Part shown: positions 3,913-60,479 of the stretch, one piece after another
Layout of the letters: each line of letters starts with the position of its first letter
Position numbering within the stretch: the stretch's first letter is position 1
From: Eubacteriales bacterium
GTDB lineage: Bacteria > Bacillota > Clostridia > Christensenellales > CAG-138
Length of the DNA: 64,000 nt
Direction of reading: 5' to 3'
Assembly (NCBI GenBank): GCA_021372675.1
Contig: JAJFTZ010000057.1
Location: 22,633 to 86,632, forward strand
Made by a program: the position numbers and the translations under genes
The notes under the pieces: model-generated
What the model was told of the DNA's origin: nothing
Databases searched by the model: none
The model's input: the letters and a program-made list of their open reading frames with translations, nothing else

Positions 3913-4098
3913 CGGGAAGTACCTGCGAGATCTCGCGGCCGGTACTTCCCGCAGGGAACGAAATCCTACGGATTTCATCCGTTTCGGCACGCAAGGCCGC
4001 AGGCCTTGGCCCGAAGGGCTCCGGCCTCGCCGGACGCGTACATGCCGCCGAAGCCGGAAAAAAGCCGCCGGGGGCATCGGCCCCCGAACCCCCTTAGG
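3913..4098 (+). repeat. Rep-A copy 1: ~186-bp GC-hairpin mosaic element
   Basis: Long hairpin CGGGAAGTACC...GGTACTTCCCG, then a 140-bp core about 88% identical by eye to the reverse complement of 10201-10340. Confidence 0.8.
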
Positions 4099-5330: not shown

Positions 5331-5359
5331 TTGACAAGTACGCATAAAAGCGTTATCCT
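5331..5359 (+). promoter_or_regulatory. Promoter of the small-ORF unit
   Basis: TTGACA, a 17-nt spacer, then TATCCT. Confidence 0.5.
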
Positions 5360-5393
5360 TTCTTTTGTAAATATTCTTAAGGAGGTGAAAGTT

Positions 5394-5537
5394 TTGGTTT
5401 CGCGCATGCTTGGGTTTGACGGTCCGATGACGGTCTATGCGGAAAACATCAAGGGCAGATCGTCCATTTCCGCGTTCCAAGGGAGAAGTCTGCCCAAAAA
5501 TGCCGTTTTCAAGCTTTTCCTCCGCGCATCGGCCTAA
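5394..5537 (+). CDS. Hypothetical small protein (47 aa) in a self-contained promoter-RBS-ORF-terminator unit
   Basis: AAGGAGG (5379-5385) lies 8 nt before TTG 5394. A TTGACA-17-TATCCT promoter is upstream and a hairpin plus T-run at 5570-5598 downstream. I recognise no homolog. Confidence 0.3.
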   Translation: MVSRMLGFDGPMTVYAENIKGRSSISAFQGRSLPKNAVFKLFLRASA

Positions 5538-5569
5538 AAAAAGGCCCACGCGCGCTGTGCCGCATGCAC

Positions 5570-5598
5570 CGGAGAGCCAAACGGCCCTCCGTTTTTTT
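5570..5598 (+). terminator. Intrinsic terminator after the small ORF
   Basis: CGGAGAGCC-AAAC-GGCCCTCCG followed by TTTTTTT. Confidence 0.6.
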
Positions 5599-5607
5599 AT
5601 GCGCTTT

Positions 5608-5883
5608 AGGGTAAAGGACTTTGAACCCCTGCGCCGCAAAGCTGCGATTTTGGCGCACTGCTTCGTCATCGTCCGTCACCGTAGCCCCGCTACGGCTCCC
5701 TCCTCTTCCTTGCATTGCATCCAAACTGGCAGCTTTGCGGTCAAGGAGTTTAGAGGGTCGGAAAGTGCGGCAGTACAAGACAGAGGCATGAAGGCGTAGT
5801 GGATCTACGGCGAGTGCCGATAACACGGTAATGGCGTGCTTTCCGCCCCCCCTAAACCACAGGGGTTCGGAGCCCTTTACCCT
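5608..5883. repeat. Rep-B copy 1: inverted-repeat element with tRNA-like termini (276 bp, internal insertion)
   Basis: Termini AGGGTAAAGGACTTTGAACCCCTG / CACAGGGGTTCGGAGCCCTTTACCCT. Subterminal blocks are shared with 18198-18357. Confidence 0.8.
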
Positions 5884-5895
5884 TAGGAGATTTTT

Positions 5896-10200: not shown

Positions 10201-10387
10201 CCTAGGGGGTTCGGGGGCCAAAGCCCCCGAAAGCTCAATTCCGGCTTCGGCGACATGCGCACGTCCGGCGAAGCCGGAGCCCTTCGGGCCAAGGCCTACG
10301 GCCTTGCGTGTCGAAACGGATGAAATCCGGAGGATTTCACTCCTATCACGGTTTTGTGGCCGCGTCCGCAGACGCAACAAAACCGTG
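10201..10387 (-). repeat. Rep-A copy 2 (inverted relative to copy 1)
   Basis: Same core. The long hairpin has the same architecture but different stem sequence (CACGGTTTTGT...ACAAAACCGTG). Confidence 0.8.
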
Positions 10388-13646: not shown

Positions 13647-13654
13647 TTTTCCTT

Positions 13655-16234: not shown

Positions 16235-18354
<2,120 letters not shown>

Positions 18355-18357
<3 letters not shown>

Positions 18358-18651
18358 AGGGGTTTTATCGTTTAAAGCCGCGCGATCGGCGGAAAACGGG
18401 TCTTCCGCCGCGCGCTTTTGGAGCGTCGTCGAGGCGATGGGGGAGGAATACACGCAAAGCCTCTCGTTTTTGAGGCAGATGAGATACGATTTTTGCGGCT
18501 CGTCGGATACGCTCACCACGCGAGTGCCGCCGATGGCGTCGTCGAGCGCGCGGCGCGTATCCCGTGAGGCAAGCGCCGTTTCGCGCGGGATGACGGCGAT
18601 GATATCGTTTATGTCGAGCACGGTTTCCGCGCCCACATGTAAAGAGCTCAC
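18355..18651 (-). CDS. remB: DUF370 / RemB (YaaB)-like protein
   Basis: Occupies the recF-gyrB spacer position. The N-terminus from GTG 18651 aligns with the family. GTG overlaps the recF TGA (GTGA). Confidence 0.6.
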
Positions 18652-19749: not shown

Positions 19750-19800
19750 GGTCGAACCCCTGCGCCGCTATAGCGCATTGCGTCGTCGGTCGCCGTAAAG
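19750..19800. repeat. Rep-B copy 3, truncated/degenerate, abutting the recF start codon
   Basis: GTCGAACCCCTGCGCCGC...GTCGCCGTA is shared with the left arm of copies 1 and 2. The outer terminus is missing. Confidence 0.6.
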
Positions 19801-19866
19801 CCGCTTTCGCGCCTTGCCTTTCCCCGGTTAAAAGGGCGGCTTGGAAGCATCGCTCTTTATGCAAAC

Positions 19867-19895
19867 AGTATACCATTTTTATGCGTAAAATTCAA
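19867..19895 (-). promoter_or_regulatory. Sigma-A-type promoter of recF-remB-gyrB-gyrA operon
   Basis: On the minus strand: TTGAAT, a 17-nt spacer, then TATACT, preceded by TGG. Confidence 0.6.
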
Positions 19896-19990
19896 GTGTT
19901 TATTAATATAAGAAGAAAGACATGGCGGCTTTGCGCGGCGCGGGGGCTTACTCCACCGAAAACGTTCGGCAGGGGATCTCTGCTTTTCCT

Positions 19991-20686: not shown

Positions 20687-22099
20687 TTAGTTTTTGCTGT
20701 CCTGCCGCTTTTTTTCAAACAGGAGGATCGCCGCCGCGACCGACGCGTTGAGCGATTCGATGCTGCCGTAAAGCGGTATTTTCACCGTAAAGTCGCACAT
20801 CTCGCGCACAAGCCTCGAAAGGCCCTCGCCCTCGGAGCCGATCACGAGCGCAAGCGCGCCCTCGAGCTTGGCCTCCGTCATGGGCGTGCCCTCCATATCG
20901 GCGCCGGCGATCCATACGCCCTCTTTTTTAAGCGTTTCGATGGCGTTACCGATATTTGCCACGCGCGCCACCTTGATGTATTCCACCGCGCCCGCGCTCG
21001 CCTTGCAGGCGGCTGCGGTGACGCTCGCGGAGCGCCTTTTGGGGATGACCACGCCGTGCGCGCCCGCGCATTCCGCGCTCCTTAGGATGGAGCCGAGGTT
21101 ATGCGGGTCCTCGATGCCGTCGAGCAGAACGAGGAAGGGCTTTTCATTTTTCGCCTTGGCCGCGTCGAGGATGTCGCTGAGCTCGCAGTACTGCACGCCC
21201 GGCACCATGGCCACGATGCCCTGATGGTTGCCCGTTTTGCTGCCGTGGCCGAAGGGCATGCAAAGCTCGTCGAGCTTGCTCCTATCCACCTCGCGAAGCT
21301 GCACGTTGTTATCGCGCGCGAGGTTCACAAGCTCGCGCAGGGAACCGTCGAGCTCCTTCACGACGAGGATACGGTCGATGCTCCTGCCGCTTTTGAGCGC
21401 CTCGCGGACGGCGTTGCGGCCCATCACGAGGTAGGGAAGCTCGTCCTCCGGCACGTTTTTGGCCTGCTCCGCGGCTGTGGCGCTCGCGGGGGCCATGGCG
21501 TCGTACTTCAGCTCGTAACGCTGCTTTTTCATGTCGGGCGCGGTGTGCGCTTCGGCCTCGTGAAGCTCCGCCTCGTCCACGGAGGGCGCGCTCGGCTTCT
21601 TGCTCTCGTAGGGCTTGCTGCCGCCGTAAGGCTTGCTGCCGTAAGGTTTTTTGTACGAACGGTCGCCGTAGGGTTTGTCGCCGTAGGGCTTCTTTTCGCC
21701 ATAGGGTTTATCGCCGTAAGGCTTATCGCCATACGGTTTTCTTTCGCCATAGGGCTTATCGCCATAGGGCTTTCTCTCGCCGTAAGGCTTGTCGCCGTAG
21801 GGTTTCTTCTCGCCATAGGGCTTATCGCCGTACGGCTTTCTCTCGCCGTAGGGTTTGTCACCGTAGGGCTTTCTCTCGCCATAGGGCTTGTCGCCGTAGG
21901 GTTTCTTCTCGCCATAGGGCTTATCGCCGTACGGTTTTTTGTCACCGTAGGGCTTTTTGTCACCGTAGGGTTTTTTATCGCCGTATGGCTTCCTATCCCC
22001 CTGCGGCTTGCCGCCGTAGGGCTTGCCCCCGCGCGCGTCGTTTCCGCCCTGCGGGCGGTAAGGGGGCTTTCCGCCGCCCCTGTTGTTATTTTCCGGCAT
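20687..22099 (-). CDS. rlmB: 23S rRNA 2'-O-methyltransferase RlmB (SpoU/TrmH) with long N-terminal KPYG repeat domain
   Basis: C-terminal LDGIEDPHNLGSILRSAE, LVIGSEGEGLS and IPLYGSIESLNASVAAAILL motifs. Start ATG 22099 lies just downstream of the mrnC stop. Confidence 0.85.
   Translation of the reverse strand: MPENNNRGGGKPPYRPQGGNDARGGKPYGGKPQGDRKPYGDKKPYGDKKPYGDKKPYGDKPYGEKKPYGDKPYGERKPYGDKPYGERKPYGDKPYGEKKPYGDKPYGERKPYGDKPYGERKPYGDKPYGDKPYGEKKPYGDKPYGDRSYKKPYGSKPYGGSKPYESKKPSAPSVDEAELHEAEAHTAPDMKKQRYELKYDAMAPASATAAEQAKNVPEDELPYLVMGRNAVREALKSGRSIDRILVVKELDGSLRELVNLARDNNVQLREVDRSKLDELCMPFGHGSKTGNHQGIVAMVPGVQYCELSDILDAAKAKNEKPFLVLLDGIEDPHNLGSILRSAECAGAHGVVIPKRRSASVTAAACKASAGAVEYIKVARVANIGNAIETLKKEGVWIAGADMEGTPMTEAKLEGALALVIGSEGEGLSRLVREMCDFTVKIPLYGSIESLNASVAAAILLFEKKRQDSKN
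21596..22024 (-). repeat. In-frame tandem repeat encoding about two dozen KPYG(D/E)(K/R) units in rlmB
   Basis: 15/18-nt periodic DNA with a higher-order 33-nt unit (KPYGDKPYGE[KR]). Translation of the rlmB frame. Confidence 0.9.
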
Positions 22100-24784: not shown

Positions 24785-25624
24785 TTACGGCTTTCTCGTG
24801 ACCTTGATGGCGATATCCACGCCGTCCGGGCGGTCTGACTGCTCCACCTCCACCGACATGCCCGCCTCGCGCAGTTGGTTGACGGCGGTGTTTACGGTGT
24901 TCATAAAAAGCCTGTAATCCTTCACGAGCCGTATCATGATGGGGCGGGGCTTCGCGCCGTCCCGCTTTTCGTCGTAAAGGCGGTTGAGCGTTTTTTCCAC
25001 ATACGCTTCGGTCTCCTTCACGGAAAGCCCCTTCTCGGCGATCTTTTTCACGGCGTCGAGCTGGTGCTTTTCCTCGCGCAGGCTTAAAAGCGCGCGCGCG
25101 TGGCGCTCGCTCAGGCCCGCTTCGACCATGGCGTCCTTCACGGCGGGGGGAAGCTTCAAAATGCGCAGCTTGTTGGCGATGGACGACTGGCTCTTGCCGA
25201 GTTTTTTGGCAAGCTCCTCCTGCGTGAGGTGGAAGGAGCTGAGAAGCTGGCTGTAGCACCCGGCCTCCTCGAGGTAGCTGAGCTCCTCGCGCTGGAGGTT
25301 TTCGATGAGCGCCATCATGGCGGAGGCCTCGTCCACCACGTCGTTTTGCACGATGCAGATCACCGTTTTCATGCCGAGGGTTTTCACCGCGCGAAGGCGG
25401 CGTTCGCCCGCCACGAGTTCGTACCCGCTTGGGACGGGGCGCACCACGAGCGGCTGAATAAGCCCCACCTGCGCGATGGAGTCCGCAAGCTCCTGAATAC
25501 CTTCCTCCACAAACGTGGCGCGCGGCTGGTTGGGGTTCGGCAGTATTTTTAAAACGTCGATCTCCTCCAGCCTCTTTTCCGGCTCGGGCTTTTTCGTATC
25601 CCTCAAAAAATCAAATACCGGCAT
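24785..25624 (-). CDS. noc: ParB-family nucleoid-occlusion-like protein (Noc-type paralogue)
   Basis: GERRLRAV CTP/ParB box, HTH TQEELAKKLGKSQSSIANKLRILKL, Noc-like C-terminus (FMNTVNTAVNQLREAGMSVEVE...IAIKVTRKP). Adjacent to rsmG. Confidence 0.65.
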   Translation of the reverse strand: MPVFDFLRDTKKPEPEKRLEEIDVLKILPNPNQPRATFVEEGIQELADSIAQVGLIQPLVVRPVPSGYELVAGERRLRAVKTLGMKTVICIVQNDVVDEASAMMALIENLQREELSYLEEAGCYSQLLSSFHLTQEELAKKLGKSQSSIANKLRILKLPPAVKDAMVEAGLSERHARALLSLREEKHQLDAVKKIAEKGLSVKETEAYVEKTLNRLYDEKRDGAKPRPIMIRLVKDYRLFMNTVNTAVNQLREAGMSVEVEQSDRPDGVDIAIKVTRKP

Positions 25625-29804: not shown

Positions 29805-29934
29805 GGCTGTTTCCTCCTCGGCGGGAAATGGGGGATATTGTGGGGATACTGCTATTGTATCCCAAAGATGGGAGGGATGTAAACGGCGGCGCGTTTTTAC
29901 GCAGTTCGTTCTCCGTTTGCCTCCCCAAAACCAC

Positions 29935-30034
29935 AAAAGGCGCCCGTTGTTTGGGCGCCTTTTCGCGAAAAGTAAGCTTTTATTATTTTACCCTAAAGTT
30001 TCTTTTGCTTCTTTTCTTTTCAAAGAAAAGAAGC
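29935..30034 (-). repeat. Rep-C full module copy c (terminator hairpin + spacer + palindrome) after jag
   Basis: AAAAGGCGCCCGTTGTTTGGGCGCCTTTT ... GCTTCTTTTCTTTTCAAAGAAAAGAAGC. Confidence 0.8.
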
Positions 30035-37184: not shown

Positions 37185-37367
37185 ATTTGTATAAAACCGA
37201 TTTGCCCCAAAACAGCGTATATACAGCCGTCTGTTTATGCATTTTTTCTTTTTTAAAAGACCGCAGAAAGCATGGAAACAGCTCGCTTTTTAGGCAGCCC
37301 GCGCACGCCCGTATGCGCTTTATACAGCCCCTAAAAAGCGCTTGTTCAAGCAAAAGCGGCCCATCAT

Positions 37368-37464
37368 AAAAGGCGCCCGTCGGTTGGGCGCCTTTTCGCG
37401 GAAAGCAAGGCTATTATATTTTGACCAAAAGTTCTTTTGGCTACTTTTCTTCCAAGAAAAGTAG
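37368..37464 (-). repeat. Rep-C full module copy e after the M32 carboxypeptidase gene
   Basis: AAAAGGCGCCCGTCGGTTGGGCGCCTTTT ... CCAAAAGTTCTTTTGGCTACTTTTCTTCCAAGAAAAGTAG. Confidence 0.85.
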
Positions 37465-50935: not shown

Positions 50936-50943
50936 GCATGCGT

Positions 50944-51019
50944 TGTTTCACATGAAACAATGTATAGACGAAATGTTTCATGTGAAACAATATGTGGATA
51001 GAATGTTTCATGTGAAACA
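50944..51019. other. Array of three parS-like sites at 30-bp spacing
   Basis: TGTTTCACATGAAACA (50944), TGTTTCATGTGAAACA (50974), TGTTTCATGTGAAACA (51004). Each matches TGTTNCACGTGAAACA at 15/16. Confidence 0.8.
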
Positions 51020-52612
51020 ATGTATAGCGGAAACAAACGGGAGGATACGCGCATCAAACAGGAGCAGGCCCTTTCGAGGGAGATCGTAAAACGGCTTCTC
51101 GAGCAGCCCAACGGCCCCGAAAAGCTCATGGACGACGCCGACACGGCGTTCGACGCTGCGTGGGCCCTTTATCTGGAGGGCTTCGCGCCTGCGGGCGCCT
51201 TTTTGGCGCGCTGCGCGAAAAAGGCCGCGTTCCGCGCGCGCATGGAGGACAGGCTCCTCTTTGAGCGTGAGGACTTCTTAAAAACGCTTTCCTCCGAAAA
51301 CCCCAAGATGCGCAAAAACGCCGCGCGGCTCATGGGGGAATTGCGGATAAGCGGAGCCGCGGAGCTGATCGTTGCGGCGCTCGAAAAGGAACCCCAGCGC
51401 TTCGTGCGGCCGTCGCTGATCCTCGCGCTCGGGAAAACGGGCGGCGCTGCGGCGGAAACGGCGCTTAAAGCCTATGAAGTGCCCGGGGCGAAGGACGAAA
51501 CCGAAAAAAAACATTTCGAGGAGGAGCTTACGGCGCTTTTCACCGCGCGCGCGGCGCTCACGGCACCCAAACGCCACGCGTTCACGGGCTTAAAAAAACC
51601 GTATCTCATTGAGCTTCGCGCGCCGGACAGGCTATCCGAGGCGCTGGTGGCCGAGCTAAATGCCCTTGGCTTTTCGGAGGCCCGCGCGGTAAGCCCATCG
51701 GGCGTGCGGCTCACGACGGACGACATTTCAGGCTTGATGCAGGCGCGCTGCTTCCACGAGCTTTTGTTTGTGGTATCCGACGACGCGGCGCTTGCGCCAA
51801 AGAGCGTCGCGTTCAAGGCGAAGCCCTTCCTCGAGGAGCTTATGATCAACGCGCATGAGGGGGAACGGCCCTTCGGCTTCCGCGTGGAGGTGCGAGCGCA
51901 ATCGGAGGAGCGCGCGGCGCTCGTAAAGGAAATTGCGCTTCTACTGAACGGCGAGACCCTCGCAAACGCGCCGGGCAGCTACGAGGCGGAGCTTCGCGCG
52001 GAGCAAAAGCCAAACGGCGGCGCGCGGCTAACCGTAAAGCTTTCGTCCATACCCGACGAGCGCTTTTCCTACCGCTTGGGGGCCATCCCCGCGTCGATGC
52101 ACCCGGCCACGGCGGCGGCCGTGCTCCGCTACGCCGCCGCTTACTTAAAGGAAGGCTCTCGCGTGTTGGACCCGTTCTGCGGCAGCGGCACGCTTTTGAT
52201 CGAGCGCGAAAAGCTCACAGCATGCGAAGCGCTCACGGGCGTGGATATCGCGCACGCGGCCATCGATGTGGCGCGCCAAAACGCGGCGGCGGCGGGGAGC
52301 AGCGCCAGGTTTATCGTTAACGATTGCCTGCGCTTTGAGGCAAACCGCAAATACGACGAGGTGATCTCGAACCTCCCCTTCGGCAACCGCGTGGGGACGC
52401 ACGCGCACAACGAGCGGCTGTACGCGGAATTTATCGCGCGGCTTCCGCTGTGGCTCAAGCCAAACGGCGTGGCGCTTTTGTACACCATGGAGTTCACGCT
52501 TTTAAAAAAGCTTCTTCGCGAAACGCCCGCTTTAAGGCTCGTGGCGCAGGAGCGCACCGAGGCAGGCGGGCTCATGCCCGGTATTTTCCTATTGCAAAAC
52601 CGCCCGGTGTGA
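51020..52612 (+). CDS. HEAT-repeat / THUMP-like / UPF0020 class-I SAM-dependent (RNA) methyltransferase fusion
   Basis: HEAT-like PKMRKNAARLMGEL..LIVAALEKEP..RPSLILALGKTG. SAM motif VLDPFCGSGTLLIE and catalytic NLPFGNR. Start codon uncertain because ATG 51020 lies inside the parS repeat unit and has no RBS. Confidence 0.6.
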   Translation: MYSGNKREDTRIKQEQALSREIVKRLLEQPNGPEKLMDDADTAFDAAWALYLEGFAPAGAFLARCAKKAAFRARMEDRLLFEREDFLKTLSSENPKMRKNAARLMGELRISGAAELIVAALEKEPQRFVRPSLILALGKTGGAAAETALKAYEVPGAKDETEKKHFEEELTALFTARAALTAPKRHAFTGLKKPYLIELRAPDRLSEALVAELNALGFSEARAVSPSGVRLTTDDISGLMQARCFHELLFVVSDDAALAPKSVAFKAKPFLEELMINAHEGERPFGFRVEVRAQSEERAALVKEIALLLNGETLANAPGSYEAELRAEQKPNGGARLTVKLSSIPDERFSYRLGAIPASMHPATAAAVLRYAAAYLKEGSRVLDPFCGSGTLLIEREKLTACEALTGVDIAHAAIDVARQNAAAAGSSARFIVNDCLRFEANRKYDEVISNLPFGNRVGTHAHNERLYAEFIARLPLWLKPNGVALLYTMEFTLLKKLLRETPALRLVAQERTEAGGLMPGIFLLQNRPV

Positions 52613-53913: not shown

Positions 53914-54780
53914 ATGGCCGTCAAAAAGGGACTCGGCAAGGGGCTGGACGCGCTCCTTGGGGATTATGCCGCCGCACCGCCCGAGGGCGTGAAGCAGGTG
54001 AACGTACACGATATCGACACCAACCTCGAGCAGCCCCGCAAGAGCTTCGACGAGGAAAAACTCAGGGAGCTTGCGGCGTCGATCTCCGTGCACGGCGTGG
54101 TGCAGCCTATTCTGGTGCGCCAAAACGGGGCGCGCTTTACCATTGTGGCGGGGGAAAGGCGTTTTCGCGCCGCGCGCCTCGCGGGGCTCGAGCTCGTGCC
54201 CGTGGTGGTGCGCGACATGGAGGATTCGGCGGTGCTCGAGGTGGCGCTTGTGGAAAACCTCCAGCGCGAGGACTTAAACCCCATCGAGGAAGCCGCGGGC
54301 ATTCGCTTTTTGATGCAGCAGCACGACCTCACGCAGGAGGAGGTTTCCTCGAGGCTTGGGAAGAGCCGTCCGGCCATCGCCAACGCGCTTCGCCTATTGA
54401 ACCTGCCGGAAAGCGTGCAATCGCTTTTGCGCGAGGGGAAGCTCCTTCCCGGCCACGCGCGCGCGCTCGTCGTGATCAAGGAAGAAGGCGTGCAGGAGGC
54501 GCTCGCCAACAGGATCGTCGCGGAGGGCTTATCGGCTCGTCAGGCGGAGGAGCAGGCGAGGCTGGCGGCGGAAAAGAGCCTTGAAGAAGGCGAAAAGCGC
54601 GCGCCGCGCAAAGAAAAGCTGAACGCCGACGCGGACCTCGCGGAGGCGGAAGCGCGCTTGCGCGAAAAGCTTGCCACCAAGGTGAGCATTTTAGGCTCAC
54701 AGAAAAGCGGCAAGCTCATCGTCGAATACTATTCCAAAGAGGATTTGAACGCGCTTTACGACCTGCTGATGCAGGAATGA
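53914..54780 (+). CDS. spo0J: Chromosome partitioning protein ParB/Spo0J
   Basis: GERRFRAA box, HTH TQEEVSSRLGKSRPAIANALRLLNL, C-terminal dimerisation region. Confidence 0.93.
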   Translation: MAVKKGLGKGLDALLGDYAAAPPEGVKQVNVHDIDTNLEQPRKSFDEEKLRELAASISVHGVVQPILVRQNGARFTIVAGERRFRAARLAGLELVPVVVRDMEDSAVLEVALVENLQREDLNPIEEAAGIRFLMQQHDLTQEEVSSRLGKSRPAIANALRLLNLPESVQSLLREGKLLPGHARALVVIKEEGVQEALANRIVAEGLSARQAEEQARLAAEKSLEEGEKRAPRKEKLNADADLAEAEARLREKLATKVSILGSQKSGKLIVEYYSKEDLNALYDLLMQE

Positions 54781-60320: not shown

Positions 60321-60380
60321 GGTTGCGCGGCGGGCACGCCGCGCATAGGGTATCCAAAGCCTTTATTCCCTAAGCAGCAT

Positions 60381-60479
60381 AAAAGGCGCTCGTTTTTGAG
60401 CGCCTTTTCGTATAAAGCAAATCTATTGTAATCTAAGCCAAAAGTTCTTTTGGTTACTTTTCTTACAAGAAAAGTAACC
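60381..60479 (-). repeat. Rep-C full module copy f after typA
   Basis: AAAAGGCGCTCGTTTTTGAGCGCCTTTT ... CCAAAAGTTCTTTTGGTTACTTTTCTTACAAGAAAAGTAACC. Confidence 0.85.

Follow-up and report, generated by a model that had tools for sequence, protein, structure and literature searches.

Rep-B, a probable TA-duplicating hairpin MITE with tRNA-like ends in uncultured Clostridia

Duplication of a 2-bp TA target is the signature of transposition by elements of the IS630/Tc1-mariner type, and insertion of the IS200/IS605 type typically uses a target of 4-5 nt. TA ends or TA duplications, together with transcripts that form long stem-loops, are listed as typical of bacterial MITEs, and the RUP element has been tied to IS630-Spn1 through its TA targets (PMC2229807). 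In the REPINs, compensatory changes across the hairpin are common (PMC3116915). We describe here Rep-B, a family of inverted-repeat elements found in a stretch of 64,000 nucleotides (hereafter the window), which is the reverse complement of approximately 3.5-67.5 kb of contig JBDKST010000023.1 (MAG GCA_039680475.1, Clostridiaceae bacterium). A preliminary description had seen in the ends of these elements a mimic of a tRNA T-arm stacked on an acceptor strand, and had offered as possible roles a tRNA-derived MITE, an RNase P/Z-type punctuation signal in polycistronic mRNA or a 5'-stabiliser. In our reading, Rep-B is very probably a small, non-coding hairpin MITE that duplicates TA and would be moved by an IS630/Tc1-mariner-type mechanism, and its tRNA look is a resemblance. 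The assignment to the MITEs follows from the combination of inverted repeats, a TA duplication, a small size without coding capacity, dispersed copies, and deletion derivatives and decayed copies.

The window holds two complete copies and one decayed half-copy of Rep-B (Table 1), and a fourth copy is found on the same contig, some 6.5 kb outside the start of the window (L151 10498-10708), which makes four copies in about 71 kb. The three places given in the preliminary description stand, but their bounds had to be redrawn: copy 1 is 275 nt long, the outermost TA on either side of copies 1 and 2 belongs to the target duplication and not to the element, and copy 3 extends further than described. 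The extent of copy 3 was redefined with an nhmmer profile built from the Rep-B copies. This copy retains the inner left inverted repeat and a degenerate left arm, its outer 13 nt are gone, and the recF ATG (19748, minus strand) joins on to it without a spacer. The subterminal blocks said to be common to the family are indeed present in both copies 1 and 2 (alignment A1). The sequence GAACCCCTGCGCC occurs exactly three times in the 64 kb, once per copy, and the end motif CAGGGGTTCGRNNCCCTT, with up to three mismatches, gives six matches in the window as against 1.2 expected, namely the four ends of copies 1 and 2 and two weak sites at chance level; no further repeat-tip matches were found in the window or in the loci of relatives examined.

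Table 1. Rep-B copies, their parts and the flanking target-site duplications in the window
Feature	Position	Strand	Evidence or remark
TA target-site duplication, left, copy 1	5607..5608	.	Empty site in L162 GCTTTT-TA-GGAGAA; window GCGCTT-TA-(element)-TA-GGAGAT
Copy 1, long form, 275 nt	5609..5883	+	Sequence, fold, 76% identity to L134; absent from L162, L163 and L164
Copy 1, terminal helix	~5609-5631 with 5860-5883		
Copy 1, left hairpin arm	~5633-5741		
Copy 1, right hairpin arm	~5748-5858		
TA target-site duplication, right, copy 1	5884..5885	.	Followed directly by GGAG, then ATG 5896
TA target-site duplication, copy 2, gyrB side	18198..18199	.	Empty sites in L156-L161 and L165
Copy 2, short form, 156 nt	18200..18355	+	Terminal inverted repeats 18200-18224 and 18331-18355
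TA target-site duplication, copy 2, remB side	18356..18357	.	With the element's first A (18355) forms the remB stop TAA, minus strand
Copy 3, decayed half-copy	~19750..19859	+	nhmmer model positions 14-131, E = 9e-6

Two independent Logan short-read contigs break inside long-form copies, one ending inside copy 4 and the other starting inside copy 1, which is how assemblers behave at dispersed repeats, and Rep-B explains such contig breaks in short-read assemblies of genomes of this kind. One Logan contig also breaks in a second repeat family of about 140 nt, unrelated to Rep-B, which is present at 3955-4094 (+) and 10204-10343 (-), with 87% identity between these two window copies, as well as at L151 10575-10634 and L160 18887-19284. 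It consists of several GC-rich hairpins and ends in ...GGCCCCCGAACCCCCT, and copy 4 of Rep-B has a piece of it, about 60 nt long, in the loop of its right arm. The modules of this second family, in contrast to Rep-B, are common among the relatives, and L160 carries tandem arrays of 24-25 nt. Several other repeated sequences are found in the region. At 50938-51033, the palindrome TGTTTCA(C/T)(A/G)TGAAACA, which matches the parS consensus, occurs in three tandem copies 30 nt apart with a DnaA-box-like TGTGGATAG between them; this is probably an origin-proximal partition site, and parB-like paralogues are found in the region (inverted repeat of 25149-25314 with 54242-54407). A further palindrome, GGTTACTTTTCTTnnAAGAAAAGTAACC, of about 28 nt each, occurs at 13653, 28374, 36059, 37439 and 60452, in many cases after a terminator-like hairpin that is itself conserved (AAAAGGCGCCC...GGGCGCCTTTT; 29932-30018, 37365-37451 and 60378-60464), and looks like an operator or intergenic module shared by the five sites. 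Finally, 33-nt (and 15/18-nt) tandem repeats at 21600-22030 lie within a long minus-strand ORF and correspond to a repetitive protein-coding region, the homologues of which range from 512 to 631 aa among the relatives.

Outside this contig, an exact-pattern scan of 185,579 species genomes with GAACCCCTGCGCCNCAAAGC gave 26 matches, two of which are real relatives: L134 (a Bacillota bacterium MAG), which carries the full long form with 76% identity to copy 1 over 275 nt, and L135 (a Christensenellales MAG), which carries a half-copy. A two-block exact pattern gave two chance matches and no relative in JGI metagenome contigs, a 14-base repeat pattern gave chance single matches alone among the matches listed for viral contigs, and no Rep-B was found by a further exact-pattern scan of viral contigs or by BLAST in the plasmid and phage collections. 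Useful scan patterns need about 19 or more specified bases and, as the scans find exact pattern matches, Rep-B is at least as widespread as they show. In the literature searched with four diagnostic 14-15-mers, no paper describes it. Rep-B is a MITE family not catalogued before, though ordinary in kind, in poorly studied, uncultured genomes of the Clostridia/Christensenellales type, and it opens no new category of biology.

The full Rep-B unit is about 275 bp long, with terminal inverted repeats of 25-27 bp and two internal hairpin arms. In the long forms (copy 1, L134 and copy 4), the terminal helix, of 23-25 pairs in copy 1 and L134, closes the two long arms, and either strand is predicted to fold as a Y shape that is almost wholly paired. 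The computed fold of copy 1 reaches -135 to -138 kcal/mol, and the folding z against shuffled sequence is -6.6 for copy 1 and -8.2 and -7.3 for copy 2. The arms of copy 2 (18198-18224 and 18331-18357, 27 nt including the TA) are 96% complementary. This short form is the long form without its central 116 nt or so (alignments A1 and A4); the end points of the missing part coincide, as read from the sequence, with a repeated CTACGG, and it was apparently deleted between these repeats. Two half-copies, L135 and copy 3, have the left repeat and left arm only. The relatives L156 and L157 carry, at a different site, a mini form of 31-32 nt (about 27-31 bp by another count), which in L157 is a palindrome of the two repeat tips alone, TAAGGCAAGGGAGTCAACTCCCCTTACCTTA. 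The window has no mini form at the homologous place, and the lengths fit an insertion with one extra TA; the mini form may be a product of in-place deletion and not a mobile unit. Rep-B, at 156 and 275 bp, contains no transposase gene. When the six-frame open stretches of three copies were concatenated and compared with 5.8 billion proteins, none matched at E <= 0.01; the same query was also aimed at spurious ORFs called over other Rep-B copies, and none of these matched either. Readings of Rep-B as an integron attC site or as a terminator were ruled out on anatomy, and a terminator scan picks up just the small repeat hairpins.

The strongest evidence on the nature of Rep-B comes from the comparison of filled and empty sites. 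With GyrB and the ABC permease as anchors, the closest homologues were found and the DNA around each was compared with the window. Empty sites were obtained in the six relative genomes sampled, where GyrB is 90-93% identical and the permease 75-96%. For remB-gyrB, the relatives (L156-L161 and L165, from GCA_023400985.1, GCA_035562395.1, JGI 3300010382 and GCA_035561175.1) represent four genomes, in which GyrB has three variants (90-93% identical), together with additional assemblies of these genomes. In every relative in which the site could be read out, the remB-gyrB spacer has 42 nt and a single TA, as ...ACCCTT-TA-CATAGCAAGGAAGG...ATG (CCCTT-TA-CATAGC or CCCTT-TA-TATAGC), where the window reads ...ACCCCT-TA-(AGGCAAAGGG...156 nt...CCCTTTGCCT)-TA-CACAGCAAGGAAGG...ATG (CCCCT-TA-(156 nt)-TA-CACAGC). 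At the permease site, the empty L162 reads ...GCTTTT-TA-GGAGAA...ATG and the window ...GCGCTT-TA-(GGGTAAAGG...275 nt...CCTTTACCCT)-TA-GGAGAT...ATG; the site is also empty in L163, whose permease is 96% identical, and in L164. A single TA in the relatives, against TA-element-TA in the window, at two independent sites, implies a 2-bp target-site duplication, and both complete copies are recent insertions that duplicated TA. Whether Rep-B is an insertion or ancestral spacer had been left to strain comparison, which favours insertion, and the MITE among the proposed roles is the one borne out, since both complete copies are absent from close relatives and flanked by duplicated TA. Across all copies, TA adjoins six of the seven readable ends, the right flank of L134 being TT. 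No full or short copy was found in about 200 kb of the relatives' DNA, against four in about 71 kb here, which indicates a recent burst in this lineage.

At the permease site, copy 1 has the terminator of a small upstream ORF on one side and the Shine-Dalgarno sequence of the ABC permease (GGAG) on the other. This small ORF (5331-5600, about 54-68 codons), just upstream of the permease operon, has a TTGACA/TATCCT promoter-like site and an intrinsic terminator at 5579-5600, is conserved in L162-L164, and could encode a leader peptide or a small secreted or bacteriocin-like peptide.

Rep-B inserts at TA dinucleotides and duplicates them, and its recent insertions in this genome are in short spacers beside gene starts, just upstream of the Shine-Dalgarno sequence of the ABC permease and between remB and gyrB. 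We propose that a DDE transposase of the IS630/Tc1-mariner type, which targets TA and whose gene would lie in another part of the genome, acts on Rep-B in trans. Once co-transcribed, Rep-B would form a very stable mRNA hairpin, a possible target of RNase III or a possible influence on expression, as reported for the Correia elements. It is the 2-bp TA duplication, and this feature only, that points to the IS630 type. No transposase or autonomous element with matching inverted repeats was found in the contig of the window (about 75 kb) or in the short annotated loci of the relatives. An IS200/IS605-type origin, with insertion 3' of a tetranucleotide, was rejected, as the flanks share TA alone and the ends are true inverted repeats.

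One feature, the pattern of base changes in the hairpin, is not fully accounted for by a plain DDE-MITE model. The outermost bases vary between copies and complementarity is kept within each copy, as the preliminary description had noted for the acceptor-like sequence; these compensatory changes prove to be broader than was noted there, since they reach the internal arms. The minimum-free-energy structure of copy 1 was applied to alignment A4, which contains five sequences, two of them partial, the structure being derived from one of the five. On this basis, 93.5% of the cells are paired and 13 pairs have both partners changed, where shuffles give 4.9 +/- 1.8 (none of 500 reaching 13) and slid controls 0-3. 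Five of these 13 pairs are in the terminal helix, four in the left arm, three in the right arm and one is apical. At the repeat ends, a single protein that binds each of them could account for the matching changes, but transposase binding at the ends leaves the arms unexplained. The changes in the arms suggest either that the hairpin itself matters, as single-stranded DNA or RNA and as in REPINs, or that template-switch correction has acted on a quasi-palindrome, a process that can give compensatory changes in quasi-palindromes without selection. The compensatory evolution seen in the arms gives a modest but genuine hint on the replication of such elements. The sample of Rep-B as a whole is small, with about seven copies known in three lineages.

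These changes bring the REPINs into the discussion. If Rep-B were of this kind, its two small terminal hairpins would be inverted REP-type sequences, an HUH/Y1 transposase (RAYT or IS200/IS605-like) would copy it as single-stranded DNA, and selection would act on the hairpin. Indeed, each end of Rep-B has a 5-bp stem and a 7-nt loop, the ends are inverted, the whole unit forms one long hairpin, and the 13 compensatory pairs, equalled in no shuffle, lie in the terminal helix and in both arms, just as known REPINs show such changes over the whole hairpin (PMC3116915). The two inverted hairpins within a larger one, with compensatory changes, that characterise a REPIN are therefore found in Rep-B. 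The insertion of REPIN/RAYT elements, however, goes without duplication at a 4-5-nt target, whereas Rep-B has a clean 2-bp TA duplication at its filled and empty sites, and TA is all that the flanks share. The ends are moreover true inverted repeats of 25-27 bp, a RAYT gene was not seen in about 75 kb of the genome, and template-switch correction could produce compensatory changes without selection. We thus regard a REPIN-like origin as very unlikely. We also hold to be very unlikely a reading with two variants. In the first, the hairpin and not just its repeat ends would be the selected unit, and Rep-B would be a single-strand replicator of Clostridia, akin to the REPINs even though it duplicates TA. 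In the second, the T-loop-like terminal hairpins, once transcribed, would be bound by a host tRNA-handling factor, and Rep-B would have a regulatory role at the neighbouring gene starts. The TA-duplicating MITE remains our preferred reading.

The resemblance to a tRNA has a simple structural basis. Within the left repeat, the inner segment reads outward as AGGGG-TTCGACT-CCC(C/T)T, with a canonical T-loop (TTCGA..) in copy 2 and L134 and the loop variants TTCGACC in copy 3 and TTCGATT in L135. The 5-bp stem with a TTCGR loop is therefore present as described, but it is not recognised as tRNA-like by tRNA or RNA-family tools. With ARAGORN, neither the window nor any of 13 related loci gave a tRNA-like gene. 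In agreement with the statement that no described RNA family could be recognised, Rep-B has no match in Rfam at the gathering threshold, the sole match of the window being a TPP riboswitch (RF00059, 62431-62532, 62.2 bits). When the threshold is relaxed to E <= 10, copy 2 matches the T-arm of tmRNA (7.4 bits) and mascRNA (14.4 bits), both of which are local noise, and copy 1 gives nothing.

The closing acceptor-like helix on the T-arm fares no better. Enforcing the acceptor and T-arm fold gives -58.9 and -66.9 kcal/mol, whereas the minimum free energies are -90.9 and -96.8 kcal/mol; on either strand, the tRNA-like fold costs 30-32 kcal/mol relative to the continuous 27-bp helix. In addition, two of the seven "acceptor" pairs are nothing but the duplicated, self-complementary TA, the right-end loops (TTCGGCT and TTCGGAG) have no A58 equivalent, and the mini form has no T-arm-like hairpin. 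Since the repeats are inverted, a T-arm-like hairpin turns up at each end of either strand. In family orientation, copies 2, 3 and 4 and L134 are antisense to their neighbouring genes (for copy 2, the recF-remB-gyrB-gyrA operon, within which it lies), and copy 1 and L135 are in the sense orientation.

The idea tested by these observations is that of a tRNA-derived or tRNA-mimicking module whose transcribed ends would fold as an acceptor on a T-arm and be recognised by RNase P, RNase Z or the CCA-adding enzyme, for mRNA punctuation or 5'-end stabilisation. The canonical T-loop of the left repeat in copy 2 and L134, the faint local Rfam matches and the location of three or four of the seven insertion sites 1-22 nt upstream of a start codon speak for it. 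Against them stand the null results of ARAGORN and the lack of a significant Rfam match even at E up to 10, the disfavoured fold, the right-end loops, the acceptor pairs contributed by the target duplication, the mini form and the occurrence of copies in both orientations, as well as the expression of the same operons in close relatives that have no Rep-B. Such a module is therefore very unlikely, and neither the tRNA derivation nor the RNase P/Z signal of the preliminary description is supported. The tRNA look of this MITE is a small palindrome within an inverted repeat, next to a self-complementary TA, with no sign of tRNA ancestry or of RNase P/Z punctuation.

The structure of Rep-B could also be that of a family of independently transcribed, structured small RNA genes, whose insertion polymorphism would be secondary. 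The secondary structure is strong and conserved, with covariation, and several G-U pairs are found on the family '+' strand of L134 and copy 4. But no promoter-like site was found in or beside copy 2, nor any consistent terminator, and the folding energy shows no consistent strand preference: both strands fold about equally, the better one varies by copy, and copy 2 favours the opposite strand. A one-strand RNA was also sought from G-U versus A-C pairs together with the strand energies, and the result was inconsistent between copies. Perfect 25-27-bp helices, TA duplications, truncated copies and bursts are on the contrary features of transposons, and no Rfam family matches. We consider this explanation highly improbable and return to the MITE in what follows.

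The preliminary description further stated that Rep-B is always found just before a start codon. The insertion points lie 13 nt upstream of the start codon for copy 1, 22 nt for copy 2 and 1 nt for L134, and copy 3 abuts the recF ATG, so that the proximity to starts stands for copies 1-3, with copy 2 slightly beyond the limit of 20 nt that had been given. It does not hold as a general rule: a start follows only some 100 nt after the mini form of L157 and some 120 nt after the half-copy of L135, and copy 4 has its right end, as far as visible, some 150 nt beyond the stop codon of spoIIE. As about 22% of intergenic bases are within 25 nt upstream of a start (a rough, informal estimate from the L149 gene calls), closeness to a start codon at three or four of the seven sites amounts to no more than a mild enrichment, a tendency and not a rule. 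Selection against insertions in genes and promoters may be enough to explain these positions.

The insertions have nonetheless left their mark on the genes around them. The remB stop codon is made of the TA duplication and the first A of the element, the ancestral stop being lost, and remB has 98 aa here (18355-18650, minus strand; L149 9525-9821) as against 90-91 aa in the relatives; without Rep-B, after a precise excision, remB would run in frame into gyrB. Copy 1 separates the ribosome-binding site of the permease from the terminator of the conserved small ORF upstream. Copy 3 replaces the native 5' UTR of recF after a conserved recF promoter, and the 5' UTR of the relatives is unrelated. 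Next to this copy, the interval from the sigma-factor gene to recF contains, in the relatives, a gene for a SpoU methylase and an ORF of 87 aa (19860-19990 compared with L156 6791-8120), and in the L152 group other genes; the window genome has none of these, with copy 3 at the junction, and this difference may reflect an element-associated deletion.

In transcripts running across the copies, a hairpin of -90 to -150 kcal/mol would form, and its perfect duplex of 25-27 bp would be a plausible substrate of RNase III. The remaining part of the earlier proposal, a 5'-stabiliser or a processing signal in co-transcribed mRNA, is thus possible as a side effect of the long hairpin, and it would be of the RNase III type and not of the tRNA type. 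These loci, the essential recF-remB-gyrB-gyrA operon and the permease, offer natural test cases for how a very stable mRNA hairpin bears on the expression of housekeeping genes.

How does Rep-B then compare with the known systems? With the tRNA-derived SINEs and with tRNA-like RNA modules such as mascRNA, it shares a local T-arm-like motif followed by an acceptor-like 3' strand. Rep-B has no cloverleaf, D-arm, anticodon arm or significant covariance-model score and, in contrast with the tRNA-derived SINEs, its mobility is that of a DNA element with inverted repeats that duplicates TA, and not retroposition, its tRNA-like fold being thermodynamically disfavoured. The REPINs, which are REP doublets mobilised by RAYT, have in common with Rep-B inverted terminal hairpins that form one long hairpin, kept by compensatory changes (PMC3116915), but Rep-B differs in its 2-bp TA duplication, its true inverted repeats of 25-27 bp and the lack of a known RAYT gene, as well as in its host (Clostridia, as opposed to Proteobacteria) and its apparently low copy number. 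RUP, a MITE of Streptococcus pneumoniae, is found in a Gram-positive host, is a non-coding element with inverted repeats and inserts at TA, with an IS630-family transposase inferred to act in trans (PMC2229807). The matching IS is known for RUP and was not found for Rep-B, RUP has 107 bp with short inverted repeats, and no sequence similarity was seen between the two. The Correia/NEMIS elements, MITEs of Neisseria, also have no sequence similarity to Rep-B and belong to another phylum; at 275 bp, the full form of Rep-B is longer and, with its two internal arms, takes a Y shape, neither an IHF site nor an outward promoter was found in it, and its processing by RNase III is a prediction. As for the features shared with Rep-B, the Correia elements are about 100-155 bp long with inverted repeats of about 24-26 bp, have TA at their termini or as a target duplication, lie near genes and are co-transcribed with them into long stem-loop transcripts, in which RNase III reportedly cuts at the Correia repeats (PMC2229807, PMC10969869).
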